Source: an uncultured bacterium
GTDB lineage: Bacteria; Actinomycetota; Acidimicrobiia; Spongiisociales; UBA5794
DNA length: 64,000 nucleotides
Direction of reading: 5' to 3'
Assembly (NCBI GenBank): GCA_963801165.1
Contig: CAWDDT010000011.1
Span: 320,001 to 384,000, forward strand
Under the pieces are notes generated by a model. It was not told where the DNA came from. It saw nothing but the letters and a program-made list of their open reading frames with translations, and did not search any database. The position numbers were made by a program, and so were the translations under genes. Position 1 is the stretch's first letter. The number at the start of each line of letters is the position of its first letter. This document shows positions 4,458-24,520 of the stretch, piece by piece.

Positions 4458-4465
4458 ACCAGGGT

Positions 4466-4813
4466 CTTGCCCCTCATGAGATCGGGACCCGTGACATCGA
4501 CTTCAGCAGCGACGGGTCGAGGATGGCGACGGTCGGAGACGATGGCTACGCCAGGGTGTGGGATCTCGAAACGCTGACGCTGCTCGATGAGATCGAGGTC
4601 GGAGGCCTGCCCACGGCTGTCGCCTTCGCCGAAGATGACACACAACTGGCGGTTGTCACCAGAGCAGGGGGCGTACGCATCTTCGACCTGGAACTCGACA
4701 AAATCCTCGATGAAGCCCAACAACGCCTCCGCCGTGGATTCACCGAGGATGAGTGCCGGGTTTACTTCCCGGACGGGGATTGCCCGACCATGCAGGAAGT
4801 CCTGGCGGGCTAG
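4466..4813 (+). pseudogene. Orphan C-terminal WD40 fragment of a STAND-WD40 protein
   Basis: HEIGTRDIDFSSDGSRMATVGDDGYARVWD repeat and RGFTEDECRVY tail matching the tails of the two full-length STAND-WD40 genes here (RDMTAEECQQY, RSLSDTECQTF). Confidence 0.7.
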
Positions 4814-4857: not shown

Positions 4858-4874
4858 TTGACGATCCTTTGACG
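4858..4874 (+). promoter_or_regulatory. TTGACG-N5-TTGACG direct repeat, putative SARP binding site
   Basis: TTGACG at 4858 and 4869 (11-bp period), about 90 bp upstream of SARP-STAND gene 1. Confidence 0.55.
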
Positions 4875-4962
4875 TCGCCAGGCGAACATCGGGCTACCGA
4901 TTGCTCTGGAAGGTGGCACGACCGTGGGCACAGCTGGCAGATCTCTCCTGTATGTTCAAAAA

Positions 4963-7900
4963 GTGGAATTCCATGTCTTGGGTCCGATAGAGGTTGTCAC
5001 CGGCGGAGAGCGGCTCGAGCTCGGCGGCCCCAAGCAACGGACCCTGCTGGCGCTCCTGGTAGCGAATGCAGGCAGGCCGATGAGCACGGATGCCCTCATC
5101 GATGGGGCCTACGGTGATGAAGCCCCGGACGGTGCTCGCCGCTCGGTTCAGACCTACATATCAAACCTTCGCTCCCTCATCGGCGACACGATTCGGTCGG
5201 TGCCTTCCGGATACCAGTTCACCCCGATCGATTCCTGGATCGATGCCGACCAATTCGTTTCCCAGGCGGAGAGCGGCCGTGCGCTGATGGAGGAGGACCC
5301 CGCGAAAGCCGGCACCGAGCTGAGGGAAGCACTGGCGCTGTGGCGGGGCCACCCATTCTCGGACGTCGAGGCCCGAGGCCATCTCGACTCCGAGATCACC
5401 CGACTCAACGAGCTGCGGCTCGTTGCGCTGGAGACCCGTATCGACGCCGACCTGGCCGCAGGAAGAGATCGTGAGCTGGTTGGCGAGCTCGAGGCGCTCA
5501 CGGCCGAGTACCCCTTTCGTGAGTCGTTTCGCTCCCAGCACATGCTGGCGCTCTATCGCTCCGGTCGGCAGGCGGACGCCCTCCGGGCTTACACCCGGAT
5601 GCGGGAGGACCTCGTAGAGCAGCTCGGAGTGGACCCGTCCCCGGATCTTCGTCTACTGGAGCAGCGAATCCTCGACCAGGACCCGACCCTGACGCTGTCT
5701 CCTCAGAGCGCAGTGAGACGCAGAGCAGTACTGGTCGTGGACCTGGCCGACATCTCAACAACCGGGCTGGCCGAACCGGATGAGCGCCGCCGGGTCCTCG
5801 CGGACATCGACCGGGCCTTGGAAACCGCGATCGCCGGGGCGAGCGGGGTGTTTGCAGCTCAGCAAGCCACCGCCACCTACAGCACTTTTGATGACGTGCA
5901 GTCTGCAATCAGAGCGGTTGCCGCAATCAGCCGTAGCGTACCGGGGCTCGATGGGCATCCTCTCGTTCGCATGGCTGTCGACGTTGGGCAGGTGGAAGAA
6001 GAACCGACCGGCGCCATCGCCGGACCAGCCGTCATTCGAGCCGCAGGCCTCGTGGCTATGTCGCATCCGGGCCAGGTCCTCTTGTCTTCCGAAGCGCAAA
6101 CGGACATTGCCGCAGATACGGACGGAGGAGCGCTGGTGCGCAGCCTGGGACGTCACCCGATTGCCCGGCTCGAGCAGCCCGAGACCATCCACCAGCTCGT
6201 CATTGACGGCCTTGCCTCCCGCTTCCCGGCGCTGCGCACCGGCGCTGAACCTCCGGGGCTGCCCACCACCGGTGTTGGCGTTCCCGGCTATGAGCTGAGG
6301 GAGGAAATCGGCCATGGCCTCTTCGGCACGGTCTACCGCGGGTATCAACCGTCAGTCGGGCGTGAGGTTGCTATCAAAGTGATCAAGCCCAATCTGGCCA
6401 ACAGCCCCGGGTTTATTCGCCGGTTCGCCGTCGAAGCCCGGATGATTTCCCAGATCGAGCATCCCAACGTGGTTCCCCTGTACGACTTCTGGAGGGGGCC
6501 GGACCGGGCGCTCCTAGTGATGCGACTCATGCGCGGCGGCAACCTAACCGACTGGAGGGAGAGCGGGGAGATGACCCGCGACGTGGCGCTCCGACTCGTC
6601 GATCAGGTGGGTGGTGCGCTGGCGACCGCTCACAAGCTCGGCATCGCCCACGGCGACGTCCAGGCCACCAACATCCTGCTGAACGACGCCGGCGACTTCT
6701 ATCTCAGCGACTTCGGGATCGCCGGCGAGATGCCAATCCTCGGTGGCGAGATGGCGCAGCAGCTGGACGTAGCCGCCTTTGCCTCGATGGTTGCCGCCAC
6801 TATGGGACCGGGTTTGCTCGGCGATGCAGAAGCCGGCGTCCTGGAGGCGGGGCGCCGTGGCGACTTCACCACGGCGGGACAGCTGTTGAGTGCGTGGCGT
6901 CTTGCGGTCGGCGCCGCCGCTGAATCGCCGACCTACACACCCAGCCGAAACCCGTACAAAGGCCTGGTCGCGTTCGGCGAGTTGGACAAGCAGGACTTCC
7001 ACGGCCGTGTTGCAGTAACTGAGGACCTGCTGGCTGCCGTCGCGGCTAAACGTCTCGTGGCCGTGGTTGGGCCGTCCGGCATCGGCAAGTCATCGGTGGT
7101 GCGTGCGGGTTTGCTCCCGGAGCTGCGGAGCGGAGGGGTCCCCGGCTCCGACCGGTGGCTGATTGCCGACTGCATTCCCGGGCCACATCCTTTCGAGCGC
7201 CTGGCCACATCGATCATGCGGGTGGCATCCACGTTCCCGCACGACCTCGAGGAATTGCTGGGTGAAAGCGATCGGGGGCTCGTCAAGACGGTCGACCGCT
7301 ACCTACCTCCGGACTCGCACCTGCTGCTCGTGATCGACCAGTTCGAGGAGCTGTTCACTCTCGCTAGGGACGAGGACACACGTGACCGGTTCCTCCGCCT
7401 GCTCGCCGCATCGGTGACCGATGAGGCGGCGTCGATACGGGTCCTGATCACTGCCCGGTCGGATTTCCTGGACCGCCCGCTGCGACACCCCGCATTTGGC
7501 GAGCTGATCCGACGAGGAACGGTCCTGGTCTCTGCCCCAACCGACGCGGAGCTACGCCTGATCATCGAACGTCCGGCAGCCAGAGTCGGAGTCGACTTCG
7601 AACCGGGTCTCGTCGAACGCATAACCAATGAGGTACACGGCGAGGCCGGGGCACTCCCGCTACTCGAGTTCACGCTCACCGAGCTCTTCGAGCAGCGCGA
7701 CTCGAATCTGCTCACGCTCGACGCCTACCGGTCATCGGGCGGAGTAACCGCCGCGCTGGGCCGCCGTGCCGAAGGTGTCTATTCGAGTTTCCAACCCGAA
7801 GACCATGACATCGTACGCCAGGTGTTCATGCGGCTCGTCACACCAGGCGCAGATGGTCGCGACACTCGAAGACGAGTCCGCGTCTCCGAGCTGGAGCTGC

Positions 7901-10501
7901 TCGACCTCGACGCAGAGACGCTCCAGCTGACTCTGACCGCGTTTGGCAAGCATCGCCTGCTCACCTTCGATCACGACGAAATCACCCGGGGCGCAACGGT
8001 GGAAGTGGCACATGAAGCACTGCTGCATGAATGGCCCCGTCTGGCAAACTGGATCGACGAGCATCGCGAGGAGCTATTGCTGCGCAGCCGGCTCGCTGTC
8101 GCCGTCGCCGACTGGGAATCCTCGGATCGGTCCGATTCGTACCTCCTGAGCCGGGGCCGCCTTGCCCAGCACGAGACTTGGACCACAGGGTCGGGTCTCA
8201 CCCTGTCGCGGGGAGAGCGGGAGCTGCTCGAGTCGAGCCGCCGTGCCGAGGATGAGCGCGCCTTGGCCCGGCGCCGTCTTCGCCGGGCAATCATGAGTGG
8301 CCTGGCTATCGCTGCCGCGGTTGGTGTCGTGTTGTCCGCCGTCGCCTTCAACGCAAGCCGGCACGCCGGTGAGAGCGAGCGAGTTGCTCTCTCCCAGGCC
8401 GCAGATGCCGAGGCAGCCCACGTTGAGGCGCAACAAAGTGCAACGCTCGCTCAGGCTCGAGAGTTGATCCTGGGAGCAGAAAAGGCCACCGCCGGCGATT
8501 CGGAGCTCGGAATCCAACTCGCCATCCGTGCGATTGAGCGTTTCGAAGCGACGGGTGACGTCCCGGGCGAAGCGGTGACCGCCCTCCGCAGCGCAATCGC
8601 CGGCAACCGCGTTGTCGCCAGGTTTCCATCGAGCCCATTCGTTGCAGCAAATCCCGACGGATCCAGCTTTGCCATCGCAAGCCAGGACGGTGGCGTCTCA
8701 ATCATCGATGCAGAGTCGTTCGAGCCGATCGACTCGCTCTCGATCGAAACCGGCCCGGCGGTGTACGCCTCGTACTCCGGTGACGGGGCGGAGATGTTCA
8801 TAGCGGGAATCAACCCGGAAGGTCGAGCGGTTATCTGGGCGGTGGACACGAAAGATGGATCTCGAGAGCTGCTGCCGGGCCCGGCAGGGGGCTTGGATGT
8901 GACCATCGATCTCAATGTCGACGTCAGCGCGACCGGTGACGTGGCAGAGCGTCGGGACGGGGTGCTAACCATGTGGGACCGCGCCACCGGCAATTCGTTG
9001 TTCGAACTCCCGGCAGCCCCGTTTAGCGGGTCCGACTTCGCCCGGGACGGGCGCCTGGCATACGTAGCACTCGACAGCGCCGGTAACCCGACGCTGAATG
9101 TCGTCGACGGGACAACGGGTGAGCAACTCGACAGCATCGCGATCAGCTCCTTTGTACCGAGTTATGTGACCTTCTCGCCGGACGGCCGTCGCGTTGCGCT
9201 GTCGGAGGACACGGGTTGGGTTGGTGTCGTCGATCTCGACACCAAAGACCAGCCCTGGCGCCCGTTCCAGCTCAACAGGGCGAATTACCCCCTATGGAGT
9301 CCCGATGGCTCGAACCTGCTGATCGGTGGGGAGCGGCCGCTCGAAGTTCTCGAAGCAGCCACCGGTCTCGAAGTCACAGAACTGGCTACCGGCTCCGGGG
9401 GCAGCCTGGCGTATGCGTGGGTCCCCGGCTCGGACCTCGTTGTCATGAACACATACGAAGACGACACTCTCGTGCTCGACCTTGCCAGCACATCCCCGGA
9501 AGCTCTAGAAAGCATCGAATCGCCGATCGGCGCCCTCGGGCTGCGCGTGACCCCGGACGGTGAGCGGATCGTCGCCCGGGAAGCGGCGTCGGGCTTCGCT
9601 ACGGTCGACCTGCGGAGCGGAGACGTTGTCTCCGGTGTCGAGCGGCGGGACCCAACGCCGGTGACGCTCGACATTGGCATGTCGATTCTCACCGCCGATG
9701 GTCAGTTCGCTTCCGCTCTCGACGATGACATGCGGTACAAGATCTGGCCGACCACCGGTGGTGAGCCCATCTACACGGCCGAGTCCGGCTGGGTCATCGT
9801 TGGATTGAACGCCGACGCGTCGCTCGCAGTACTCAAGAAGGATCAGGATCCGACTGCGCGGCTGGTCGACACCAACACCAATCGGTTGGTCGCCGAATTG
9901 GACGTGGGACCCTGGCTCCCGTTTGCGACGTTCTCGCCCGACGGTCGCTACCTCATCGGCTCGACCGATGAGACCCCCGATGCCTTCCGGGTGTTCGATA
10001 CCTCCGACGGCTCACTGGTCGCCCAATTTGGCGGCGAGACGAACGAGTACGCGAGGTCTCTGGGTCAGGTTCGTGCCGACAGGCGACACCGTCGTGGTGA
10101 CGACGCCTCGTGGCGATGTCATCATCTTCGACTTCCTCGCAATCCTCAACGGAGCCGCCACCGAGGACGCCATCACCAGAATCATCAATGCCCACGACAG
10201 TTTCGTCTTCGAACCGGCCATCTCGCCGGATGGCACGATGCTGGCGACGAACGCCCAGGGCGAGCCAGCCCGGGTGTGGGACATCGCAACCGGGCGCCTT
10301 CTCGACGAAGTCGGAACGGGCGGATCCAAGGCGGTCGCCTTCGATCCGATAAAGCCGTGGCTCTATGTCGCCGAAGGCAACACAATCACAGCCCACACCC
10401 TCGATATCGACGCTCTCGTTGCGCTCGGTCGTTCGACGCTCACCAGGGATATGACAGCCGAGGAGTGCCAGCAGTACCTGCACGGCCCCTGCGACGCCTA
10501 A
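4963..10501 (+). CDS. SARP (wHTH-BTAD) - cyclase-like - Ser/Thr kinase - nSTAND1 NTPase - TM - WD40 protein; frameshift near 10055
   Basis: FHVLGPIEV..GGPKQRTLL, MLALYRSGRQADAL (BTAD), kinase VAIKVI..DFG, RNPYKGL, Walker A GPSGIGKSS, Walker B VIDQFEELF, VEVAHEALL, hydrophobic segment, WD repeats. C-terminus continues in the 9923-10501 frame. GTG 4963 lies 6 nt after a TATGTT -10. Confidence 0.88.
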
Positions 10502-10560
10502 CGGGATTCGCGGCGTGACCAGGGGCGCAGCGATCGCCCGACCATGGAGAACCCGTCGAC

Positions 10561-13500
10561 CTAAGCAACAGGCTCGGCATTCAGCATGTCGTGGACCATA
10601 TCGAAGGCTTCTTCGAGGGTGAGGCCCGTCAGGTTCGCCACCGCCAAGACGATCAAGCAGATCGGCCCAACGCTGAGCCTCTCCGATCTCCTCCCAATGC
10701 TGGAAGCTCGCCTGTGCCATCAAGCCAGGCGCTTCTCGGGCAATCTGACGTGCGTCGTCCACCCGGCCCGTCGCCTCGAACGCCAGCGCAATCGGAAGCA
10801 ACACCTCGAAGAAAGGTGACTCGTGCCACGCCACGAGGTCCAAAGCATCAGCCAGATGGCGATGTCCATCGGCGTCGACTGCGGCAAGCAGGTCTCCGGT
10901 CCACTCCCGGCTCAGAACCAGCACGTCGCGATGCTCATCCGCATAGGAAGCCACACGAACCTGCAGAGGTGCCCTGGCCTCCCCACCGGTCTTCTCTCTG
11001 GCCTGGTGACTGCATTCAAGCGCATCCCTGAGCAGCACCTGATCGTCGAGCCCGATGGCTTCAAAGGCGACGAAGTCCCAGCAGTGCTGTTCCGAATCAA
11101 AGCGGTAGCTGGCACGGTGAAGTAGGGCTGCATCGAGGTACAACCGCACCGCGTCCGCGGAGTTGCCCGTGAGCCGCTTCGTCTCACCCCTGACCTCGAG
11201 CGCGTCGGGATCCCCCAGACCCATGGTCGCCAATGACCATGCCTCGCGCTCTGCCGCCGTCTCCAGTGCCTCGTCAAAACGACCCAGGTCCAACAAGAAG
11301 ATCGCCCGGTTCCAGAGGTATCTGTTCGCACCGGCGACCCCCGCCGCCCGCAGCTGCTCGATCGCTTCATCCAGCAGCTGCAAAGCCGAGGTATCGATCC
11401 CGTCGCGCACTGCGTCCACGACCGCCCGTCGCTGCAGAACTTCTCCTCGAGCCGCCGGGTCGTCCAATGCTTTTGTGATGGCGCCGGCTCTCTCCAATAG
11501 TTCCAAGGCATCGTCGGAGCGCTCGCCCCACAACATCCAAGCAGTATGGGCCAATGCGGTTGCGAGATGGCCGGTTGGTTGTGCTGCCGGGTGGCGCACC
11601 AGTTTCACCGCGCCATCGACAAACGCGGAGACAGCACCTTCGTTCGCAACCCTGAAACCGATTGACGCAACAATCTCGACACCGACGTCCGGTTGATCGT
11701 GGTTGAGAGCCCAGTCGATAGCAGAAAGAACGTCGGAGTGGCGATCGTGAATCCACGCCGCTGCCGACAGCGCTCTGTGCGACCAGATCTCCGCACCGAC
11801 GCGTTGCGACTCAACGGCGATCCACCGAGCCAGACGCTCGCCGACGCCGTCCAGCTCTTCGCCGGCCTCGAGCAGGTACTCGGCATATTGACGGACGGGT
11901 TCCAGCATCCGGTGTCGGCCCGACTCGTCCGTGGGTTGCACCAATGAAACGTCCACCAGACGAGCAAGAACGTCCTCGGCATGAGGGTCCTCCAGCACCG
12001 CCTCAGCGTCACGGAGCTCACACCCCCTGGGAAACACCGACAACCAGCGCAGCGCTCGCTGTTCGGCGTCCTCGAGAAGGTCGTAGCTCCAGCCCAAAGC
12101 CGTAGCGATCGAATCATGCCGCTCGCCTGAGATGCGGGATTTTCTCAACAGGGGGACGAGGTCATCGAGACGCTGCACCAGTCGGTCCAAAGGGATGGAG
12201 CGAGCCCTCGAGGCTGCGAGCTCGATAGCCAACGGCATCCCGTCGAGAGCGGCACACAACTCTTCGACCTTGCCGGAGGCCTCATCATCAAGGTTGGCAA
12301 GGTCGGCGCGATCAGCGAACAACTCAGCCGCAGTAGCAAGGTCCAGGCCACCAACCCGGATGATTGCCTCCCCGGCCAGGCCGAGTGGTTCTCGCGAGGT
12401 CGCAAGAATCCGGGTCTGTGGGCTCGAGGACAGCAGACGGTCGGCGAGCCTGGCGGCGAATTCGAGGTGGGCTTCGCACCCATCCAGGATCAGGAGGTGG
12501 GTGTGGGCTATGAGGAAGCCAACGACGACATCGGATGGGTCAACTCCGGGTGCCGGGGCCAGGCCCAGCGACCTGACCAGTGCGTCGACGATCTCGCCAT
12601 CACCGAGCGTGTCCACCACTACCCGGGTCACCGGATCCCCCCGGTGAACCTCGGCACCACGAGCAGCCTCCACCACCAGGCTCGACTTCCCGATCCCACC
12701 GGGACCGACCACCGTCACCAGACGGTCGGCAGCTATGCGTGCGGAGACTGCAGCGATCTCTTCGGCACGACCGACAAAGCTCGAGTACCGGATCGGTAGT
12801 GAACCGACGGTTGCCACCGAGGGAGTCGCCGCTAGCGGCGAGAGCGAGGGATCTTGCTGGAGAATCCTCAGCTCCAACTCCTGCAATTCCGGCGACGGAT
12901 CCAGTCCCAGATCGTCGGCGAGCTGGTCACGGAACACCTTGTAGCTGGTCAAAGCGTCTGCCTGACGCCCCGCTGCATACAGGGCTCGCATGTGCAGGGC
13001 CCTGATCCGCTCCCGCTGCGGATACTCAGACACCCGGCGATCAAGCTCGCCGACATCGCCGCCACCAGCATCAATCTCGACCCCGATTGCGGCCTCAATG
13101 GCCCCCAACTTCAGCTCGGTCAGCCGGGAAACCTCAGGACCCAGCACCTGATGTCCATCCACGCCCTGGAAAGGCTCACCGTGCCAAAGCTCGAGCGTGT
13201 CTCGAATGGTGGCGGCGGCCTCCACCGGCTCGGTGTCGAACTGCTGGTGAGCGACACGTACACGATCAACAAAGTCGACCGCATCTACCTGACCCCGATC
13301 GAGACGAGCCACATAACCGCTGCCATCTCTAACGATCACCTCCCCCAGAAGCCTGCGGAGATTGGAAACATAAGTCGAGATCGATCGCAAAGCCCCGTCG
13401 GGCACGTCATCACCCCAGACCGCCTCGATCAGCCGGTCGACCGACACCGTCTTACCAGGATCGACGGCCAGCACCGCCAAAACCGTCCGCTGCTTAGGGC

Positions 13501-13567
13501 CACCCAACGACAACCGGACCCCATCAGCCACCGCTTCAACCGGCCCCAACAACTGGATACGCAACAT
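10561..13567 (-). CDS. AfsR-like SARP-BTAD / NB-ARC ATPase / TPR regulator; probable frameshift near 10630
   Basis: IQLLGPVE..GGPKQRTVL, MRALYAAGRQADAL, LVTVVGPGGIGKS, ILATSREPL, LDGMPLAIELAA, helical repeats. A +1 shift gives the family-like ending LTLEEAFDMVHDMLNAEPVA* at 10561 instead of a long overlap with the convergent gene. Confidence 0.85.
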
Positions 13568-13679
13568 CCCGCAAACCTACCCGCCAGAAACTGCAAGTGC
13601 CCGAGTCGACGCTGCAACTGGTCGAAACCGTTTGGAGGACGGGCGGTCCTGACTCACAGCCGGGAGAGAACCGGGCTCC

Positions 13680-13696
13680 TTGACAATCCGTTGACA
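13680..13696 (+). promoter_or_regulatory. TTGACA-N5-TTGACA direct repeat, putative SARP binding site
   Basis: TTGACA at 13680 and 13691 in the divergent intergenic region. Confidence 0.55.
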
Positions 13697-13840
13697 GCTG
13701 TGGCCGATGGTTTTGCAACGACGCGTCGCTCACAAATACGGCGCAGCAGAACAAGAGGTAGGCGAACAACCGACAGACGTCGCCAGCGTGCGCACTCGCT
13801 CTGACAATGCCTCGTCAGCCTGCCGGGAAGGGAGACATCG

Positions 13841-14449
13841 ATGAATTCCATTCGAGTACCCCATAGGAAGGTCCGTCTTTCAATCGGCGTGGTGATCCTG
13901 CTGCTGGTCGCCTTGATGCCTGCCGTGGCATCGGCTGGACTGCATGACCAAGCGAACGAGGTCCTCTCGGGCGCGACCCATGACGCTGGCCACGGCTCCA
14001 TCTGGTCGGCGCTGGCCAGAGTACGCCGTGCCACCGAGCGGTTCCATGATGTCGACGCTGCGATCGAGGCCGGCTACGAGCCTGGCTACGTCAACGGTGA
14101 CGGCATCCGGATCATCGCCGGATGCATCGCAGACCCGGTCGCCGGCGCCATGGGGTATCACTACTTCAACAAGCAACTCATAGACGACCTCGAGGTCGAC
14201 CCGTTGAAGCCGGAAGGCCTGCTGTACGAACAAAGGCCCAACGGGGAACTGAAGCTAGTCGCCGTGGAGTGGGTCGTGCCGGGCGCCGGCGCCAATCCCC
14301 CCGGTGTCTCGGAGGCACCGAGCGTGCTCGGGATGGAAATGCACATACTGGTCCCGGCCGTCGGGTGGTACATCCAGCACGCATGGATCTACAAACACAA
14401 CCCTTCGGGCGTGTTTTCCGACTGGAACCCGCTGGTCCATTGTCCGTGA
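13841..14449 (+). CDS. Secreted hypothetical protein (His/Cys-motif family)
   Basis: Signal peptide (..VALMPAVASA), RBS GGGAG; motifs ATERFHDVDAAIEAGY, GAMGYHY, PEGLLYE, LVAVEW, HAW..NPSGVF..WNP..C. Confidence 0.8.
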   Translation: MNSIRVPHRKVRLSIGVVILLLVALMPAVASAGLHDQANEVLSGATHDAGHGSIWSALARVRRATERFHDVDAAIEAGYEPGYVNGDGIRIIAGCIADPVAGAMGYHYFNKQLIDDLEVDPLKPEGLLYEQRPNGELKLVAVEWVVPGAGANPPGVSEAPSVLGMEMHILVPAVGWYIQHAWIYKHNPSGVFSDWNPLVHCP

Positions 14450-14487
14450 GCCACGAGGTGGCTACCCGAGCCGCAACTTGACACGGG

Positions 14488-14519
14488 AGGGGGCGAGCCC
14501 ATGTGGGCTCGCCCCCTTT
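14488..14519 (+). terminator. Rho-independent terminator
   Basis: 13-bp stem AGGGGGCGAGCCC-atgt-GGGCTCGCCCCCT plus short T run. Confidence 0.75.
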
Positions 14520-14680
14520 CTGCGTGCACCTGAGAAGATCGTCGGGCTGTTGAACTGTCCGGCGGATCAGCGCCAGACACCGTGTCGATGGACGAGGGAA
14601 GGAGCTTGCGTTCCAAGAACCACGCTTATCTCGGTATCCGCCCTATCCCCGCAATCAGTCGCGAGCCGAACAGGGTGCGC

Positions 14681-17600
14681 TCACGCGTCCCCACGTAAGG
14701 GGCAGGTGTCCAGGTGGAGGAACGTCTGGCACTCCGTATCCGAAAGCGACCGAGTAACCCGCTCCCTCGCGATCTCGACCAGTTGGTCCGTGTCGAGGGT
14801 ATAGGTGAGCAGAATGCCGCCTTCGCCCAGCAGCGTCACGTAGGGGTCATCGGGATGAAAAAAGATATAGGGAATCCCGGCTACGAGGTTCGGGTCAAGC
14901 GAAGCCACCGGAGATCCGTCGCTGGCATCCCAAACGGTAACCGGCTCGTTTGAGCGAGAGGTCGTGGCGACGAAGCGGCCATCCGGGCTGGCAACGTGAC
15001 CTGGTTCCACCACGAGTCCTGAGGTCGCGAAAGCGCTCCAGATTGCCGCCTCAGGCAGGCTCTTACCCGCCTTGAGATCATCGAGTCTTGCCTGCCAGAG
15101 CGTGCCGTCGACGTCGACGATAGATATCGTCTGCCCGTCGGGCATCACCCGCACCGACACCCAGTCGTCGCCCTCCAGAACCAGGTGCCCGTCGTCTGCG
15201 GAAAAGATCGGGCCACCCCAGTCGAACACAAGGCGACCGTCGTAGGAGTAGAAGGGAAGCTGAATGTATTCGGTATCAAGCTCGGCAATGACTTCGCTCG
15301 TGGCCATGTTCACGATCTGGTACGGGCCGAACGCTTGTTTCCCGTCATCGGCCCGAGGATTAATCACTACGTCTCGATCCGTCCGGTGAGACCGTCCGAA
15401 CCACAAAGCCCTCCGGCGGTTCGTACAGCACGCTGCCGGTGGCTAGATCACGCACGCTCGACGATCCGTCGGTCGTGTTGGCAACCACCACCGGTCCTTG
15501 AACCCAGGTCTGGATACTGTTGAAGACAGACACAACCGGGTTCTCTACCTGCCAAATCGTCTTGCCGGTAGCCGCCGCGACGATGCGAGCGGAGGGAGGA
15601 GTCTCCGTTGTCGCTGATGAATACTCCGTCCGGAAAAGGTGCATATACCACAAAATGCGCTTCTCTGCTCCAGAATCGAATCGTGAGATCTCCGCAACAG
15701 GTCCGGCCTGTGTATTCCAGACAACAGAAGTATCGTCCCGTTTTCCTGAGGAGACCAGAGTTCCGAACCCGGGACCGAAGCCAAGGACCAGACTGGCCCA
15801 ACGTGGCCACCATTCAGCACCTCGAGGATCCCGCCAGCATCTGCACCAAGGAGCGTTATCCGCCCTCCGTCGCTGCCAACGGCGAGGCGACCGCTCGGCA
15901 ACCACTCGACCCCGGCGGGTCGATCGACCGTCGCTCGCCAGATCTCCTTGCCCGAGTCAGTCTCATAAGCTCTAACGGTGTTGTCCTCGTGAAAGGCGAC
16001 AACGAGGTTGTTGCCGTCGGGCGAGGAGCCATAGCTCCATGGCACATACGGCAAAACGAGCGTATTCACCTCTGCCCCATCACCCATATCGAAGAAGTGA
16101 AGGGCGCGGCCGTCATGATCTGTCAACACAAGTTCGTTCGTACCTGCGACAAATACCGGAGCACCTTCGAGGGGAACTATACGCTCGAGCTCGCCGGCGC
16201 CGGCCGACCAGACGTGGACACCGTCGGCCAGAGTCGCGGCTACGAGGTCACCCGAGTCGTCCCACGCCTCGAGCGGCTCTAAGCCGGAATTGGACACCGC
16301 CGGACCGTCTAGGTGCAGGTTTGTTCCGCCATCCAAATCCATGATCCACAAGGGCGTGTCGCTGACTATCCCAGACGATACCGAGCTGTCGGCCAACGGG
16401 TGAGAATTCGGCGGCGATCGAATAGCCGTCCGGTCGCTCGAATACGTCAACAATCTCCCCGGAATCGACCTCCCGAACGATGACACCGCCGTCGGGGCTA
16501 CCGCTAGCTAGCAGGACACCATCAGCGCTCACGGTCACGAACCCGCCCCCCTCGAAACGATCAACGACACGATCAGCGGCCACCGCCCTGTGCAGTGCCG
16601 TCGTCATGTCGACGAGATCGATCCCTGCTCCCCGGCCAAGCTCTACCGCCTCGAGCGCCAGCAGCACACTCCGTTCGGGGTCGACCTCAAGTTGAGTAAT
16701 AGACCGCGCAGCCAGTTCTCGTGCAGATCCGGCGTCCTGCGCCCTCTCGGCGCGGTTGCGCTGCAACGTCGCCACCACACCGAATAGGCTGGCGAAGACC
16801 GCGGCAGCTGCAAACCCAGCGAGCACCCGCCGACGGCCCTTCCGTCGTTTGTTCCGCTCGGTTTCCCTCCATGCTGCACTCCCCCTGAGGAGGTCACGTT
16901 CCGCTGATCCGAGCGACAGATCGGTCGTATCCGCCCAGTCATTCAGCTGGGCAAACCGGCTCCCGGTCAGCAGCAGGGAATCGTGCCTGCCCGACTCCTC
17001 CCAATCGTCCGTTGCCTCGAGCAACCGACGACGTGCCCGCAGGTCGCTGCGACGTTCCTCGATCCAGTCGACCAGCCGCTCCCATTCGGAGAAGATGGCC
17101 TCATGCGCCACCTCCAAAGTGGGACCGCGGGTTATCGGGTCTCGGTCTGATGTGAAAAGGCGGTGGGAGCGAAAGGCAGCAGAGACGGCGTCAACATCGA
17201 CCGGCTCCAGCCCTAGGCGATGGAGCTCAGCGACTCGCACACGGCGCTTGGTCACCCTCCCGGCGTCCGGGAGCGTAAGAAGACGGAGAAACACCTGCCG
17301 GGCCGATTCGCGCGATGCATCGTCGAGTGCCTGGTACGTCGATTCAGCCCGTCGGCCGAGGGCACCACGCACTCCACCCGACTCCTCGTAGGCGGCAACC
17401 TCAACAGCGTCTGATTTTCGGTCCCCAAACAGCTCGCTCAGCGAAAACTCGAGCAAGGGAAGCGCTCCGACCTGATCTTTCACATCGGCGACCATGCGCT
17501 CGACAAGACCCTCCTCAAAGTGCACTCCGACCGCCTTGGCAGGGACAGCGATGATCTCCCGCAAGTTCTCCTCGGTTGGAGCAGCGATCGGCACTGTCGA

Positions 17601-20147
17601 CTGCCGCAGCAGATCGCCAAACGCGCCGAACCGGAGCGGCATGTCGAAGAAGTCGGCGCGCATCGTCAACACGACCCGCACGGCGGACCTCTCATCCGTC
17701 GCCGCTGCAAGCAACTGGTCGAGAAAGGTGGCTCGAGCTTGCTCGTCGTCGACCAGAGTGAACAACTCCTCAAACTGATCAATAAACAGCAACAAGCTCT
17801 CGTTTCCCGGCAGATAACGTTTGGCAGCGCGTACCAGACCGCGTTCACTCCCCAGTAGCTCGTCTTCGAGACCCGATGCAGGCGTGGCTGACACTCGGAG
17901 CAACGCGGTCGCAAGTTCCTCAAACGGGTACATGCTCGGAACCATGTCGCTGATCAGCCAGTTCTCGGAGCCGGGAAGGGCACCGGCGCGTAGCGCCGGT
18001 ATGAGCCCCGCCCGCACCACCGAGGACTTGCCGATACCGGAAGGCCCGACGACAGCAACGAGGTTCTGTCGACCTACCGCGTCCAGCAATTGGCGAATCT
18101 CGTCGTCGCGTCCGTAGAAGTCCGTCGCATCGGCTTCGCCGAACGCACTCAGACCCTTGTATGGATTGCGGGTTGGGGTGAACCCGATTGCTGCCCGGAC
18201 CAGCCCACCGGCCCCGCTCACGTTGGCCCACGACTCCAAGAGGGCGACCAAATCGACGAAGCCATCGGCTCTCACCTCAACGAGAAACTCCTCGATCTCC
18301 GAAGCCACCTCTGCTCCCGCCAGGCACTGTTCGATCAACGACCCGAGGGCACACAGATCAGCATTCGCCGCTCTCGGATCGTGATACAACACGTCAATAG
18401 CTATCCCGAAATCGGCGAGATACGCGTTGCCATCGTCGTCGAACAAGACGTTCGACGGCTTCAAATCACGGTGCACCACACCGTTGCGATGCGCGTGGTC
18501 AAGGGCCGGTACGATCTGGGCGAGAATCGCATTGATTTCGAAGAGCTCGAGCGGCCCCCGCTCCAGCCGTTCCGAGAGGCTGCCGCCGCGCAGCCATCGC
18601 ATGACCAGGAAAGCGCCGTCGGCCTCCCTCCAGTAGTCATGAAGGGGCACGATGTGAGGATGCTCCAGACGGGCAACCAACTGTGCCTCAACCTCAAACC
18701 GGCGAATGAAGTCCGGATGATTGGCGAATTCCGGACGGATGACCTTGACCGCTACCTCTCTCCCAACCGAAGGCTGGTAGGCGCGGTGCACTACGCCGAA
18801 TACACCCGATCCAATTTCTTCTCGGAGTTCGTAACCCGGTAGACCTTTGGCTACACCAGGCAACGACGGAGGGAGCGCCGTCATTTGCAGCGGGGGAAAC
18901 TCGGTGGGCAGCCCACCGACCACCAGCTGCTGAACCGCCATCGGCTCGTCCATCCCGGCGAAGCTATGCGTCCCAAGTGACCGGATCAGCCACCCGGCCG
19001 TGCCGGCTTCCGCTAGACCTTGATGAGCTTCGGACGTCAGCAGTATCTGGCCGCCGTGGGCGGCGCCGACAAGCGCAGCACCCCGATTCACCGGCGGACC
19101 CACGATGTCCGACCCGGGCTGCGCTTCAACATCTCCGGCGGCAATCGCCATTCGCATCGGAGCGCGTTGAGTAACCAGCACAGTCTGTGCGGCGGCGGCA
19201 GCACTGCTCGCCTGCTGAACATCGTCGAATACTGCGTACATGGCGGAACCACGATGAGCAAAGACGACACCACCATGCGCAGCAACCGCTCCGGAGAAGG
19301 CAACGGTCTGGTGTTCGATCAAAACACCACGATCGGCCGGAGACATTGTCGTCAACGAGGCAGGCTCGGCGACGTCTGCCACGAGAATCGCTGCCCTACG
19401 GATGGAGGAGCGAGGTTCGAGGTTCAAATCGGGGTCTTGCCCCAATATCCGTTGCTCCAGGTCACGCAACTCCGCCGATGGATCTAGCCCCGTCTGATCG
19501 ATGAGGGTCGACCGTGCCTTCGCATAGGAACGCATCGCTTCTGCTTGTCTCCCCGACCGGTAAAGAGCGAGCATTTGTTGGGCCCAGAAATGTTCGCGGA
19601 GGGGATACTCGACGGTGAGCGCATCGAGCTCTGCCACTAGAGCTGCGTGGTGCCCCGATTCTAGGTCGGCATCGATCCGCAGCTCCGTGGCCGCAACCCG
19701 TAGTTCGTTTAGCCGCGTGGCTTCGGCCGCGAGAGCGGTGCGATCTTCAATGTCCGCGTACGGATGACCACGCCATAGAGACAGAACGGCTCGAAGTCGT
19801 TCTGCAACGGTGGTCGGACTATCGAGCGACCGAACCGCCCCTAGCTCATCCTCAAAACGGCAGGCGTCTACCGAGGCCCTCTCGGCGAGGAGTATGTAGC
19901 CCTCACCGCGCCTTTCGATGATGTCGCCAAGCTCCGATCGAAGGTTTGACACAAACGTGTGGATCGAGCGATGGGCGCGATCGGAAGCCTCGTCTCCGTA
20001 CAGACTATCGATGAGGGTGTCGACCGACACCGGTTTCCCCACCTGAGCGATCAGCAATGCAAGCACTGCTCGCTGTTTCGGACCCCCCAATGTGTACCGG
20101 TGGTCGCCCTCGACCACTTCAAGTGGGCCGAGAACACCGAATTGCAT
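14681..20147 (-). CDS. SARP - cyclase-like - Ser/Thr kinase - nSTAND1 - TM - WD40 protein, paralogue of 4963-10501; three frameshifts (about 16362, 15765, 15380)
   Basis: MQFGVLGPLEV start 6 nt after TACCGT; BTAD; HRDLKPSN..DFG; RNPYKGL; GPSGIGKSS; FIDQFEELF. WD40 region continues across ORFs 15545-16486, 15360-15905 and 14681-15406 to VTRSLSDTECQTFLHLDTCP. Confidence 0.85.
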
Positions 20148-20219
20148 GGGTCCACGGTACCCGAGGACTGCCGCACCTGGTTGTGTCGTCTGCGTCACAG
20201 GTACAGACAACCCGAGGCC

Positions 20220-20323
20220 TGTCAACAAGCTGTCAAGAACCCGGAACGAGCACCTCGGAACCAACAACGGCCGTCTTTCCGGATTTCTTGACGACTTCTT
20301 GACACTCTTGACATCGCCTTGAC
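20220..20323. promoter_or_regulatory. Clusters of TTGAC direct repeats in the divergent promoter region
   Basis: TGTCAA at 20220 and 20231 (minus-strand TTGACA, 11-bp period); CTTGAC at 20287, 20298, 20307, 20318 (spacings 11, 9, 11). Confidence 0.6.
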
Positions 20324-20367
20324 CCGCTGCCCGCGAGTGCTTGTGAGGGGTCGCGGAAGTTGTAGCC

Positions 20368-21123
20368 ATGAGCTACAAACGCACCGCACTCGCCATCGCA
20401 ACACTCGCCATCACGCTCTTGTCGGTAACCCCGGGCACACAACCGGTGGATGCCACCTCATCGGGGTACGCAGTGGTTCTGCAGGAGCAGGCTCGGCTGG
20501 CTTCACACCAACCGAGCCTGCCCACCCCCGCGCCCGCCCCGGAGCCAACAACAACCATCGGCACCGCAACCATCTACGCCAAGACCGACGGACTCGTCGA
20601 CACGGCCCGCTGGGCACTCGAGCAGTTCGTCGAGGCCGGCATACCCCTCCCCCCGGTCACCCTGTACCTGTCCGACGACCGGACCGACTGCAGCGACGAC
20701 CCCGACAAGATCGTCAACGGCTACTACACCCAGGTCAACGGCGAGAACATCGTCCACGACTGCGGCAGCCGCTCCGTCCTGGTACACGAGCTCGGCCACG
20801 TCTGGGACAAGAACTACCTCGACGACGCCACCCGGCAACGCTTCCTCGACTTCGAGGGTCTCGAGACGTGGAACAGCGACGTCTGGGATCAGGCCGGCGG
20901 CGAACATCTCGCCTCAGTCATCTCCTGGGCGCTCGACGGCACCCATCCCAGCCGGATCGGCTACTACACCGATGACCACCTCGCCGGGGCGTACGAGCTC
21001 GTCTTCGGAGCAACGCCGCCGATCATGGAGAAGCCCGTTTTCGAGCCGGTGGCTCTCGAACGTCACCCCGACGATGCAGCAGTCAGCGCTCCGCCCGCAG
21101 CAGCCTCACAGGACCCGAGTTGA
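20368..21123 (+). CDS. Secreted zincin-like metallopeptidase
   Basis: Signal peptide, Pro/Thr linker, NGYY, VLVHELGHVWD (HExxH) and downstream EHLA. Confidence 0.7.
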   Translation: MSYKRTALAIATLAITLLSVTPGTQPVDATSSGYAVVLQEQARLASHQPSLPTPAPAPEPTTTIGTATIYAKTDGLVDTARWALEQFVEAGIPLPPVTLYLSDDRTDCSDDPDKIVNGYYTQVNGENIVHDCGSRSVLVHELGHVWDKNYLDDATRQRFLDFEGLETWNSDVWDQAGGEHLASVISWALDGTHPSRIGYYTDDHLAGAYELVFGATPPIMEKPVFEPVALERHPDDAAVSAPPAAASQDPS

Positions 21124-21219
21124 TCACCCGCACCGAATTGGCCGCGGTGGGCATCCGCCGTTGGTGTGGTGACGATCGGCCCTACGGGTCCGCCGGTTGA
21201 TGCTGTATCACAGTTCACG

Positions 21220-23551
21220 ATGGACCAGAAGGAACTCCGCACGCTCGAGGAGAGGTGCATACAGGACTGTGCCCCGACGTGCACCTCGCGGTGCCCGGTT
21301 CATGTCGACGTGAAGGCGATGACCGCCGCAGTGGGGAGCGGCGACGTCTCTGCCGCCCTGGCCACCTTCATGCGCTCGGTGCCCTTCCCCGGGATCATCT
21401 CGCACGTCTGCGACCGGCCGTGCGAGGACGTCTGCATCTACAACAACATCGGCAACCCGATCGCCATCAGGGCCATAGAGCGCACCTGTGTCGAGCAGGG
21501 CCGGCGCCCCGACGGCACAGCGAACCGTCGCCCGAAGCGCTCGGAACGAGTCGCCGTCATCGGTGGCGGCATCAGCGGGCTCGCCGCCGCACACGACCTC
21601 GCTAAGAAGGGGTATCAGGTCACCGTGTTCGAATCGGGTGACCGGCTCGGCGGCAGCCTGTGGAAAGCCGGCCGTGACTACCTCCCCGCCGAAGTCATAG
21701 AAGCGGACCTCGAGATCCTCCCGATGCTCGATGTCGATGTCCGGCTCGGCGTCACGATCGACATGCCCATCGGCACGCTCGTCGGCGATTTCGATGCGGT
21801 TTACGTCGCTACCGGACCCGGTCGTGCCGCCGTCCATCGGTCTCCCCCGCGACGACAACGGCAACGTCATCGTCGACCCGGTCACCTTCGGCACGCCCGT
21901 CGATGGGGTTTTCGCAGGTGGTGGCCTGCTGTGGGGTCACGAGATGCACTCGTCGATCACTTCCATCTCCGAAGGCAGGCGAGCGGGCATCTCCATCGAC
22001 CGTTTCCTGCAAGAGGTGTCCCTAACCGCATCTCGATCCGGTGAGGGCCCATACGAGTCGTGCCTGTACACCGACCTCGAGGAAGTCGAGGCCCGGCCCC
22101 GCATCGAAATGGGCCACCCCGACGATGGCTACGAATGGTACGAGGCCATGCTCGAAGCACAGCGATGTCTCCAGTGCGAATGCATGGAGTGCGTCAAGGT
22201 GTGCCAGTACCTCGAGGACTACGGCAAGTATCCCCGCAAGTACGTGCGCGAGATCTACAACAACCTGTCCATCGTCCAGGGGACGCGCCACGCCAACAAG
22301 TTCATCAACTCGTGCAGCACCTGCGGGTTGTGCGCCGAGGTTTGCCCCACCGATGTCGATATGGGCGAAATAGTCCTCGATGCTCGCCGCACCATGGTCG
22401 AGCAGGGGCGAATGCCGCCTTCGGCGCACGACTTCGCCTTACGGGACATGCAATTCAGCAACGGCGAGAAGTTCGCCGTCGCCAAGAACCCTCCTGGCAC
22501 GGACACCAGCACCTATGTGCTCTTCCCCGGGTGCCAGCTGTCCGCTTCATCGCCGCAGCACGTCGAAAAGCTCTACGGCCATCTCACGTCGCAACTGCCC
22601 GGCGAGGACGTCGGGCTGATGCTCGGGTGCTGCGGATCCCCGGCCAAATGGGCAGGCCGCACCGACCTCTTCGACGAGACGATAAGCAAGTGGCAGGGCG
22701 AGCTCGACGCCATGGGCAACCCGACCGTCGTGCTGCCCTGCTCGAGTTGCTTCCAGGTGTTCAAGACGGCACTGCCCGACGTCGAGATCGTGTCGCTGTG
22801 GGAGTTGTTGGACGACAAAGGAATCACGCCGGAGACCATCGTCGGCGAGCCCCGCACCGTGTCGATCCACGACCCGTGCACGACGAGGCACGAGACCGGG
22901 ATACACGACAGCATCCGCCGCATGGTGGGCGACATGGGCTACGAGATCGACGAGCTGAAGGCAAGCAGAGAGAAGACAAGCTGCTGCAGCTACGGCGGCC
23001 ACACCTGGCTGGCCAACCGCGATCTGTCGACCCGCATTATCGAGCGTCGCATCTCCGAGAACGATGCCGACTACGTCACCTACTGCGCCATGTGCCGTGA
23101 CTTCTTTGCCTCCAAAGGCAAGCGCACTCTCCACGTGCTCGACCTGATGTTCGAGACCGACGTCGAGAGGCGGGCCGAGCGCACCGGGCCGGGTTACTCT
23201 CAACGGCACGAGAACCGCGCCCGGCTCAAGCGCAGGCTGTTGAAGGAGATCTGGGGAGAGACCATGGCTGGTGAGGAGCAATACGAGTCGATCATCCTGA
23301 GGCTTTCCGACGATGTGGCCGCCCGGCTCGACGACCGCCTCATCCTGATCGAGGACATCCAGCGTGTCATCGAATATGCCGAGCGAACCGGGCGCAGGCT
23401 CGCCAACCGCGAAACCGGCCACCTCCTCGCTTATCACCGGCCCGATGCCGTCACCTACTGGGTCGAGTACCTGCCCACCGACAACGGCGCCTACGAGATC
23501 TTCAACGCCTACAGCCATAGGATGGAGATCCCGGGGAGCACCGATACATGA
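21220..23551 (+). CDS. Pyridine nucleotide-disulfide oxidoreductase / dicluster / CCG-domain Fe-S protein; frameshift near 21820
   Basis: CAPTCTSRCP, ISHVCDRPCE, VAVIGGGISG; continues in the +1 frame with RCLQCECMECVKVC, CSTCGLCAEVCP, FPGCQL, CCG, HDPC, CCSYGG, YCAMC. Confidence 0.85.
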
Positions 23552-23766
23552 GTCCGGACGAGGAGACGATTCTCGGCGACGAGTCCAACTGGCTATGTGC
23601 CAACTGTGGGGTTCCACTCGAGATATCCAAGGTCAACGTTGCCTATCTCGGCAGTGGCTTTCCGGTCGATCTCGCCCGCTGCCCCAACTGCGGTCTCGTC
23701 TTCATCCCCGAGGAATTGGCGTTGGGGAGGATGCTCGACGTCGAGCAGCAACTCGAGGACAAGTGA
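23548..23766 (+). CDS. Small double-CxxC protein (DVU_1557-like)
   Basis: WLCANC..CPNCG..EQQLEDK; ATGA overlap with upstream gene. Confidence 0.8.
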   Translation: MSPDEETILGDESNWLCANCGVPLEISKVNVAYLGSGFPVDLARCPNCGLVFIPEELALGRMLDVEQQLEDK

Positions 23767-23770
23767 CGTC

Positions 23771-24520
23771 GTGGTCTCTGAGATGACAGTCAGGGTGTAC
23801 GAGCGGACCCATGCCGCCGGTCTCGTCGATGACATCATCCGTCCCGGCGGTCTGGCGCTGACCAACGCAATGGTCGACCGTGCGGGTCTCCAGGCCGGTG
23901 ACCTCGTCCTCGACATCGGGTGTGGTCCGGCCGCCAGCATCGAGCACCTCCGGAGCGACCGGGGCCTCGAGATGATCGGCCTGGATCACTCGGCGGCGTT
24001 GCTCGCTGCGGCTCGCGCCAACACGGCCGCACCGCTGGTGCGCGGCGACGGAGGCCGGCTGCCTTTCCGCGACGCCTCGATCGACGCCGTCATCGCCGAG
24101 TGCACCATGTCGCTCATGCCCGACATCAGCGGCGCGCTGAGCGAGATCAGCAGGGTGCTTCGACCCGGTGGCTCTCTGCTGTGCTCGGATATCTACGCAC
24201 GTGACCCCGACGGAGCGGCCGCCCTCCAAGCGCTCCCGTTCGAGTCGTGCATCCGCGGTGCGCTGGGCCGCGACGAGATCCTCGGGCTGGTAGCCAACCA
24301 CGGATTCGAGGTCGCGTCCTGGGAGGACCGGAGCGGGGAGCTGCGATCGTTCGCAGCGCAGCTGGTTTGGCGCGGCGGGTCGATGCGCACGTTCTGGTGC
24401 CGGACCGGGGGTGCGGGTGATCCCGACGCGGTCGAGGCGGCGGTGGACGGGGCACGACCCGGCTACTACTCGATGGTTGCAAGAAAACCAGACGATCTGT
24501 CCGCCGAGGAAAAACGATGA
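23771..24520 (+). CDS. Class I SAM-dependent methyltransferase (DVU_1556-like)
   Basis: IRPGGLALT, VLDIGCG, LPFRDASIDAVIAEC, RVLRPGG; start codon uncertain (23771 or 23783). Confidence 0.85.
   Translation: MVSEMTVRVYERTHAAGLVDDIIRPGGLALTNAMVDRAGLQAGDLVLDIGCGPAASIEHLRSDRGLEMIGLDHSAALLAAARANTAAPLVRGDGGRLPFRDASIDAVIAECTMSLMPDISGALSEISRVLRPGGSLLCSDIYARDPDGAAALQALPFESCIRGALGRDEILGLVANHGFEVASWEDRSGELRSFAAQLVWRGGSMRTFWCRTGGAGDPDAVEAAVDGARPGYYSMVARKPDDLSAEEKR

Follow-up and report, generated by a model that had tools for sequence, protein, structure and literature searches.

Which promoters does a very large bacterial receptor serve when it carries its own DNA-binding head, and are the TTGAC direct repeats found beside three such receptor genes its binding sites? 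The question is raised by a stretch of 64,000 nucleotides from an uncultured bacterium of the class Acidimicrobiia (contig CAWDDT010000011.1, positions 320,001 to 384,000), to which "the window" refers throughout. It holds three genes, g1, g2 and g3 (Table 1), that encode an N-terminal OmpR-type winged helix-turn-helix (wHTH) and a BTAD domain fused to STAND NTPases, as an earlier note on this DNA had recognized from the sequence and as Pfam searches bear out. The evidence below makes it quite probable that the TTGAC repeats are SARP boxes, that is, 11-bp direct repeats to which g1, g3 and probably g2 bind side by side through their wHTH-BTAD domains. The repeats are best read as serving the autoregulation of g1 and g3 and the activation of two divergent genes for secreted proteins, and the TTGAC type of SARP box is best read as previously undescribed. 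A literature check that was judged from listings and took in PMC13581612 turned up no description of the SARP-STAND module or of a TTGAC-type SARP box, although supplementary tables of STAND clades might differ.

The repeats in the window and in the host genome

TTGACG starts at 4858 and 4869 and TTGACA at 13680 and 13691 on the plus strand; TGTCAA, the minus-strand form of TTGACA, starts at 20220 and 20231; and CTTGAC starts at 20287, 20298, 20307 and 20318, in steps of 11, 9 and 11 bp. These are named here box A, box B, box C2 and array C1. A re-reading of the sequence recovered every motif that the earlier note had listed. Its statement that all pairs are spaced by exactly 11 bp holds within each pair, but array C1 has a 9-bp offset between its two pairs. 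Similarly, the repeats lie upstream of all three SARP-STAND genes by position but not by orientation, as box B points away from g2.

The pattern TTGACNNNNNNTTGAC has five matches in the window (the minus-strand pair of box C2 being placed at 20221-20236), as against a mean of 0.08 in 100 dinucleotide-preserving shuffles, of which the largest count was 2 and none reached five. The TTGAC repeats of the window are thus non-random. In the host genome (4,552,639 bases in 13 contigs, 64% G+C), TTGAC-N6-TTGAC forms eight pairs over both strands, and the five in the window all sit in three intergenic regions adjoining wHTH-BTAD-STAND genes, so that the genome-wide count proposed in the earlier note speaks for its idea. 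The remaining three pairs (C4:137917, C6:394165 and C11:438463) each fall within a stop-to-stop open frame of at least 100 amino acids (aa). TTGAC pairs at spacings of 10, 13 and 14, which are not multiples of three, number 3, 3 and 2 in the genome, and the reversed pattern matches once. No exact TTGAC pair was found upstream of the host's seven other BTAD genes (on C9, C6, C7, C5 and C13, at C11:314405, and on C3).

Promoter geometry

The position of the repeats relative to the genes they face can be compared with known SARP promoters. According to PMC10936776, these have direct repeats at a distance of 11 or 22 bp, with the 3' one separated from the -10 element by 8 bp, and in the afs box, at -40 to -19, sigma region 4 rests on the SARP dimer in place of a -35 element. 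The rule of a heptamer followed by 8 bp (PMC10936776) was applied to 14 gene-facing TTGAC-type pairs, with hexamers scored at offsets of 8-25 from the start of the 3' repeat. At offset 15, A is found at the second position (A2) in 10 of the 14 pairs, T at the sixth (T6) in 11, and both in 8, giving a summed A2/T6 score of 21 as opposed to 1-12 at the other offsets. The repeats show features of published SARP promoters: pairs at 11 bp, a 22-bp step to a degenerate fifth repeat past array C1, and a predicted -10-like hexamer at heptamer plus 8 bp. No A2/T6 signal appears at offsets 21-25, the range of a 17-bp spacer, and a canonical -35/-10 arrangement with a spacer of 16-18 bp, tried by eye, was rejected, since the offset scan peaks only at 15. 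The two TTGAC hexamers of a pair are 20 and 9 bp upstream of the predicted -10, a spacing that is wrong for a working sigma70 -35 element, a role suggested by the likeness to which the earlier note had pointed.

An in-frame ATG or GTG lies 6-9 nt past the hexamer in 10 of the 13 SARP-facing pairs, in nine of these at 6-7 nt, and the residues added by these upstream starts include a recurring Y-(V/L)-R motif. A start codon just past the hexamer suggests leaderless mRNAs, and the messages of g3 and of the divergent 251-aa gene are probably of this kind. The same spacing moves the likely start of g3 to the GTG at 20198, 6 nt past its predicted -10, the ATG at 20147 being the conservative choice.

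Conservation of the boxes among relatives

A g3-type protein is present in 33 of 40 relatives at E 1e-30 or better, often in several copies. Exact pairs occur less than 450 bp upstream of the closest orthologues (G007:C78, G011:C66, G016:C3, G002:C320 and G018:C80), and the orthologous intergenic regions compared share a plan in which TTGAC-N6-(T/C)TGAC is directed toward the regulator and TTGAC-N6-TTGAC-N4-TTGAC-N6-TTGAC toward the divergent homologue of the 251-aa gene, with intervening sequence that differs between loci. The 11/9/11 array is found in ten loci: that of the window, G007:C78, G007:C24, G011:C66, G016:C3, G002:C320, and four reached through the partner protein (L175, L199, L223 and L178). 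In L172, it precedes a second copy of the partner gene without a SARP gene within 1.5 kb. In some loci, one repeat of the array is degenerate (TTGGC, TTGAT, TTGAA, TTGTC or CTGAC). The fifth repeat, 22 bp past the fourth, reads TTGTG, TTGAG or CCGAC in other loci and is a perfect TTGAC in L178, while the -10 place of the 251-aa homologues is taken by GACGGT, GACGTT, GATGGT, GATCGT or GATGTT. The order of fifth repeat, 8 bp, hexamer, 6 nt and ATG of the 251-aa gene is kept in these other loci.

The spacing of 11 bp extends to the wider family. For a first set, 500 bp were taken upstream of each of 80 SARP N-termini in the relatives (matches starting at query residue 5 or earlier), excluding G027 and five further rows and adding seven regions of the host genome. 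Direct repeats of 5-mers number 408 at spacing 11, compared with 58-128 at the other spacings not divisible by three and 132-186 at those that are. Exact repeats of at least 6 nt at spacing 11 lie within -200 to -30 in 33 of 85 full regions, as opposed to 2-7 regions at the other spacings from 7 to 23. The base rate in the genome is about 0.043 per 170 bp, and genome-wide counts (1157 repeats at spacing 11 versus 1060 at 10 and 1078 at 13) reveal no bias toward 11. A second set of 79 loci, collected via the partner protein and mostly from metagenome bins of Acidimicrobiia or Actinomycetota, has 34 loci with a divergent SARP N-terminus upstream, and here a spacing-11 repeat recurs in 18 of 28 new, non-identical intergenic regions. 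Other spacings occur in 0-3 regions, except for 20 (8 regions) and 22 (5 regions), which correspond to the 11+9 and 2x11 steps. The family-wide motif search that the earlier note had recommended thus finds spacing-11 repeats enriched in both sets.

The repeated words themselves differ between paralogues. They include TTGACAG, CTGACAG, TAAGTCG, TGTTGAGA, CTCTACG, AACCG-type words, CTTCAAGCG and others, mostly 60-110 bp before the annotated start, and among 31 boxes, NANNNT hexamers placed 14-17 nt past the start of the 3' unit give 13 hits, compared with 0-3 at other offsets. In one relative (G001:C122:12476-25802), three tandem kinase-bearing SARP-STAND paralogues each have a TAAGT(C) pair about 80-87 bp before the start, indicating that box types are not always private to one gene per genome.

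When 43 SARP heads are aligned, the type of box is seen to go with the recognition helix. TTGAC boxes are found with the helix A(R/H)RS(I/V)(Q/H)T(Y/F)(V/I)SNLR, that of g1, g3 and their orthologues; CTGACAG boxes with NALQA(L/V)VSRLRR; TAAGTC boxes with NALWV(Y/H)IS(R/A/G)(L/V)R; CTCTACG boxes with LVQVYVSRLR; and AACCG boxes with LQGYVHHLR. Residues T88 and R92 of AfsR contact bases (PMC10936776). They align to T64 and N68 of g3, and these two positions vary by box group (T/N, A/R, V/R-A-G, V/R and G/H, in the order given). In the second set, TAAGTC-like regulators carry CTTAAG(T/C) boxes and TTGAC-like ones carry TTGAC arrays. This covariation fits cognate recognition, without being independent proof of it. 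Two near-identical loci, L226 and L231, have the helix ARRSVQTF(I/V)SLIRK, in which Leu replaces the Asn of the TTGAC group, and repeats weakened to TTGAA, TTGAC and TTGTA; they may represent a natural intermediate in the divergence of box and helix.

The three regulators

Trans_reg_C (E 5.1e-09, 1.1e-11 and 1.7e-08 for g1, g2 and g3) is followed directly by BTAD (E 4.4e-43, 4e-31 and 7.7e-36) at the N-terminus of all three proteins, each match lying above its curated Pfam cut-off; this is the arrangement that defines the SARP family. Pfam gives no Response_reg match in g1, g2 or g3, and the winged helix begins at residue 22, so the receiver that precedes the winged helix in OmpR/PhoB response regulators is not found in them. 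For the SARP domains, the matches to AfsR chains have E values between 1.6e-40 and 3.9e-39, and that to EmbR has 1.8e-38. On the AfsR equivalog model NF053617, the three proteins score 182.6, 210.1 and 175.3 bits, over the SARP part only in g1 and g3 and over residues 2-571 in g2; these scores are far below the cut-off of 1430 and indicate that g1, g2 and g3 are not AfsR orthologues.

Behind the SARP head, g1 and g3, which are paralogues with 47% identity, match nSTAND1 (PF20703) at E 1.2e-118, over profile positions 1-378 of 379, and at 2e-114, respectively. In g2, an nSTAND1 stretch of only 36 residues (E 1e-06) is accompanied by a sub-threshold NB-ARC match (19.6 versus 23.5 bits). The kinase match of g1 covers profile positions 1-148 of 263. 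That of g3 (residues ~439-600, window ~18400-18830 on the minus strand) is likewise confined to the first 148 of 263 Pfam positions, and inspection by eye finds the VAVK lysine, HRDLKPSN and DFG kept, with an activation segment and C-lobe that look shortened. A single hydrophobic helix of 20-27 residues was detected by a Kyte-Doolittle scan between nSTAND1 and WD40 in g1 (residues 1108-1132), in g3 (1124-1145, numbered from 20198) and in four orthologues (L002-L005). Because this predicted membrane helix is conserved between NTPase and WD40, the WD40 propeller may lie outside the membrane and the DNA-binding head inside.

Not all of these frames appear intact. The g3 protein is about 550 aa shorter than its orthologues, whose open frames span 1850-1979 aa, and one of the propeller fragments downstream of it ends in the same Cys-rich tail as STAND/WD40-type proteins; these fragments, at 14681-16486, are probably the broken C-terminal sensor of g3. 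Over 566 bp (9953-10518), the convergent frames of g1 and g2 overlap. Within this stretch, the usual high third-position G+C is absent in both frames and both tails are rich in Arg and His, as would be expected of sequence read out of frame, and g1 and/or g2 may be frame-shifted there, or the assembly may be wrong. The 3' tail of g1 looks out of frame after about 10100, and the C-terminal part of g3 likewise looks frame-shifted. At its other end, g1 has an alternative in-frame GTG start at 4924.

The divergent, predicted secreted proteins

Searches of Pfam and NCBIfam with E limits as loose as 1 or 0.1 gave no family for either the 202-aa or the 251-aa protein. Members of the 202-aa family adjoin SARP genes in five of the eight places found. 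In ten sequences of the 251-aa protein, H140, E141, H144, E179 and two Cys are invariant. A structural model (predicted local distance difference test, pLDDT, 78.9) gave weak fold matches to zinc peptidases (best E 6e-3, template modelling score ~0.3); Foldseek against the PDB found nothing at E 0.001 or better, and an Atlas search with the model returned only unnamed Actinomycetota clusters. On the basis of its HExxH motif and invariant residues, the 251-aa protein is a likely candidate for a small secreted zincin-like metallopeptidase. A sequence search of solved structures with the 251-aa alignment produced two marginal matches (E 0.0056 and 0.43), which were treated as noise.

Of the 40 relatives, 22 have homologues of the 251-aa protein, and at least 16 of the 59 matches listed there are head to head with a SARP N-terminus. 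A single-sequence search of the genome contigs with this protein found no relative, but an alignment-based scan did find loci. In L118 (G023:C16), a 453-aa homologue (775-2133, minus strand) is fused to a VanY D-Ala-D-Ala carboxypeptidase domain (E 4.3e-11), and in its promoter the array is present and the fifth repeat is perfect. This fusion hints at a cell-wall substrate for the 251-aa family. No biosynthetic cluster was seen beside the 251-aa gene.

A proposed mechanism and its alternatives

The geometry and the conservation in orthologous intergenic regions both support the earlier proposal of the repeats as SARP boxes, here as predicted sites. As to the roles it assigned to them, the orientation of the boxes agrees with autoregulation at g1 and g3 and with control of the divergent genes at 13841 and 20368; g2 has no box of its own. 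At g1, g3 and the 202-aa gene, the two-repeat box would lie at about -38 to -17 of the predicted start, its 3' heptamer ending 8 bp ahead of a weak -10. Seated there, a SARP dimer would stand in for the contact between sigma region 4 and a -35 element and so activate transcription, as AfsR does. At the 251-aa gene, the proximal degenerate repeat would occupy the equivalent position, backed by four strong repeats from 22 bp upstream. With these four in steps of 11/9/11, one STAND oligomer could engage the repeats through several of its SARP domains at once. A WD40 propeller past the single predicted membrane helix would sense a cue, the STAND NTPase would switch or oligomerize, and the SARP domains would then load onto the boxes, so that the regulator would raise its own level by positive feedback and turn on the secreted zincin-like protein. 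In this account, DNA binding, activation rather than repression, sigma adaptation, the signal and the role of the kinase-like domain are inferred.

Several observations weigh against this account. No box faces g2 in a degenerate-pair scan, and g2 has a recognition helix of the TTGAC-group type (ALRSISTYVSNLR). The same scan found no pair in a close relative (G001:C228), and G016:C3:307896, with a TTGAC-type helix, has no pair within 500 bp when one mismatch per repeat is allowed; G015:C3 and G018:C70 have only degenerate pairs. In the first family set, 52 of the 85 regions are without an exact repeat of at least 6 nt at spacing 11. The -10 elements and transcription starts are predictions. Six of the 14 hexamers are without A2, T6 or both (that of g3, TTGTCT, has no A2), and three of the 13 SARP-facing pairs (g1, G016:C3 and L176) have no nearby in-frame start. 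The 9-bp step between repeats 2 and 3 of the array is not the classical 11 or 22. The apparent truncation of g3 and the apparent frameshift in the g1 tail mean that not all the regulators may be functional in this host. Finally, the comparison drew on relatives whose genomes are for the most part metagenome bins, and since helix and box are partly inherited together, conservation and covariation overstate their independence.

Among the other explanations, we regard it as unlikely that some other direct-repeat regulator, such as a distant one of OmpR/PhoB type, or only one of the three SARPs, uses the repeats, in the latter case with the other genes adjacent to them merely by coincidence. OmpR-type winged helices generally read direct repeats spaced by 11 bp, and with one box type common to three regulators, sequence alone cannot assign sites to proteins. 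AfsR and PhoP also share sites in Streptomyces (PMC10972967). However, no intergenic exact pair occurs in the genome outside this locus, which leaves no wider regulon for such a regulator, and paralogous modules change their box together with the adjacent recognition helix, a pattern that a common regulator acting from a distance would hardly account for. That the SARP domains bind the repeats as repressing operators, through autorepression or occlusion of RNA polymerase, is quite improbable, although the upstream hexamer TTGACA or TTGACG is a perfect look-alike of a -35 element, the boxes overlap the core promoter, and with a four-repeat array upstream of the proximal repeat, a roadblock or looping is conceivable. 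With weak predicted -10s and TTGAC hexamers 20 and 9 bp away from them rather than 16-18, these promoters would be expected to work poorly unless an activator assists them; the family description of BTAD is that of an activator domain; and the 3' repeat, with 8 bp between it and the -10, is in the activation position, from which AfsR activates (PMC10936776).

Activation by SARP binding can also be set against two accounts that do without a dedicated activator. The -35 consensus is TTGACA, and the hexamers might be nothing more than the usual sigma-70-type -35 elements in promoters arranged in tandem or divergently. The pattern counts 141 across 41 genomes as opposed to 54 for the reversed control, consistent with TTGAC-rich promoter DNA being common. 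This account is nonetheless very improbable: a consistent -10 is missing at 16-18 bp, the signal being sharp at offset 15, the 11/9/11/22 phasing is conserved across loci, and paralogous modules have repeats that do not resemble a -35 element (TAAGTC, CTCTACG, AACCG and others) at the equivalent place. The repeats might also be a chance cluster or a functionless remnant of duplicated DNA, and the paralogy of g1 and g3 could have passed on some upstream similarity. We find this scarcely credible, given that none of the shuffles reaches the observed count and that only the repeats, spacing, hexamer and start codon are conserved between orthologous regions.

Relation to known systems

To our knowledge, SARP activators are known almost solely from Streptomyces antibiotic clusters, and we know of no characterized example of very large STAND/WD40 receptors with a SARP head. 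The nearest likeness is AfsR of S. coelicolor (SARP-NOD-TPR), which also has an N-terminal wHTH and BTAD followed by a STAND-type NTPase, and whose afs box consists of two 11-bp repeats over the -35 region, at -40 to -19 there (PMC10936776) and predicted at about -38 to -17 here. Unlike AfsR, g1 and g3 have nSTAND1 rather than NOD, a WD40 part behind a predicted membrane helix rather than TPR, and a kinase-like insert. The AfsR box is given as CGTT(T/C)ATCGNN in PMC10972967, in contrast to TTGAC(A/G) here, and the five-repeat 11/9/11/22 array, the likely leaderless targets and the host class, Acidimicrobiia and not Streptomyces, are further differences.

Small pathway-specific SARPs are proteins of about 250-300 aa encoded inside antibiotic gene clusters. 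Those such as ActII-ORF4 and DnrI share the 11-bp unit of a heptamer and a 4-nt spacer, with two to three repeats over the -35 region (PMC10972967), whereas in the window the receptors that begin with a SARP domain are 1200-1850 aa long and the target is a single divergent gene for a secreted protein. SARP-LAL proteins of the PimR type resemble g1 and g3 in that a SARP is fused to a large ATP-binding regulator and in that they act on a regulatory or effector gene in the neighbourhood. PimR sites have three heptameric repeats with 4-nt spacers and secondary operators with units other than 11 bp, but they do not lie over the -35 region (PMC10972967). PimR also differs in its guanylate-cyclase-like and LAL parts and is without WD40 or a membrane helix. 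EmbR of M. tuberculosis (SARP-FHA) belongs to the same SARP fold family, as its match above indicates, and has a link to Ser/Thr-kinase signalling that is paralleled here by a fused kinase-like domain. It is controlled by a separate Ser/Thr kinase. Unlike g1 and g3, it ends in an FHA domain and has no STAND, WD40 or fused kinase.

STAND/WD40 receptors headed by a SARP domain form, together with a secreted effector-like protein, a module that is widespread in Acidimicrobiia. It is possible, and we put it forward tentatively as something short of an even chance, that Acidimicrobiia hold an expanded and diversifying bank of membrane-spanning, NLR-like one-component receptors, each tied by a recognition-helix/operator code of its own to its leaderless promoter and to a divergent secreted-protein gene. 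Each receptor would run from an extracytoplasmic WD40 part through the membrane helix, nSTAND1 and kinase-like domain to the SARP head, and its output would be a small secreted protein, zincin-like or related to cell-wall peptidases, making the modules largely orthogonal devices for sensing and secreting. Were this so, it would amount to a natural library of insulated SARP-operator pairs.

Finding the grammar of Streptomyces-type promoters (11-bp repeats, 8 bp to a weak -10, a 22-bp step) in uncultured Acidimicrobiia has several consequences. The geometry pins down testable promoters and likely leaderless starts, and places the probable start of g3 elsewhere than annotated. The pattern across the family amounts to a specificity table for a winged-helix family, including the base-contact positions of AfsR, and synthetic biology in actinobacteria could draw on it for candidate activator/promoter pairs that are orthogonal. 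It would also link a bacterial NLR-like receptor class to a defined output, the secreted HExxH protein, whereby the sensed cue becomes experimentally approachable.

Features and neighbouring genes of the window

Table 1. Genes, repeats and predicted promoter elements of the SARP-STAND locus (window positions; TM, transmembrane)
Feature	Position	Strand	Description
box A	4858..4879	+	two 11-bp direct repeats TTGACGATCCT, TTGACGTCGCC; toward g1; aligned with orthologous gene-facing pairs
predicted -10 GAACAT	4884..4889	+	heptamer + 8 bp past 3' repeat of box A; A2, T6
g1	4963..10518	+	1851 aa; wHTH-BTAD-protein kinase-nSTAND1-predicted TM helix-WD40 (Pfam, TM scan)
g2	9953..13567	-	1204 aa; wHTH-BTAD and NB-ARC-like NTPase (Pfam, NCBIfam)
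box B	13680..13701	+	two 11-bp direct repeats TTGACAATCCG, TTGACAGCTGT; toward 202-aa gene, not g2
predicted -10 GATGGT	13706..13711	+	heptamer + 8 bp past box B
202-aa gene	13841..14449	+	signal-peptide-like N-terminus (by eye); divergent from g2
WD40/PQQ beta-propeller fragments	14681..16486	-	open frames of 241 and 313 aa, downstream of g3
g3	16248..20198	-	wHTH-BTAD-kinase-nSTAND1-TM helix; ends before or inside WD40 part
predicted -10 TTGTCT, g3 promoter	20205..20210	-	same hexamer, same place in G002:C320 orthologue
box C2	20215..20236	-	two 11-bp direct repeats TTGACAGCTTG, TTGACAGGCCT; toward g3
array C1	20288..20329	+	four TTGAC at 20288, 20299, 20308, 20319; toward 251-aa gene
degenerate fifth repeat TTGTGAG	20341..20347	+	22 bp past repeat 4, 8 bp ahead of -10
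predicted -10 GAAGTT (GAnnnT)	20356..20361	+	6 nt ahead of ATG of 251-aa gene
251-aa gene	20368..21123	+	signal-peptide-like N-terminus (by eye); HExxH (HELGH); divergent from g3

The left end of the window (3-4055, plus strand) is occupied by a gene for the large subunit of ribonucleotide reductase with inteins, comprising two LAGLIDADG_3 stretches, an Intein_splicing match and TSCPD. Downstream of the 251-aa gene, 21166-26342 (plus strand) encodes an iron-sulfur/flavin adenine dinucleotide oxidoreductase over two overlapping frames, possibly frame-shifted, a CCG-domain iron-sulfur protein, an S-adenosylmethionine (SAM) methyltransferase and a radical-SAM-like protein; nothing was seen that links these genes to the SARP module. 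An orphan fragment of about 117 aa, encoded at 4460-4813 (plus strand) just upstream of box A, holds the final WD40 blades together with the C-terminal tail (containing ECRVYFPDGDCP) of a protein of the STAND/WD40 type. As no upstream part is found in frame, this fragment is probably a gene remnant.

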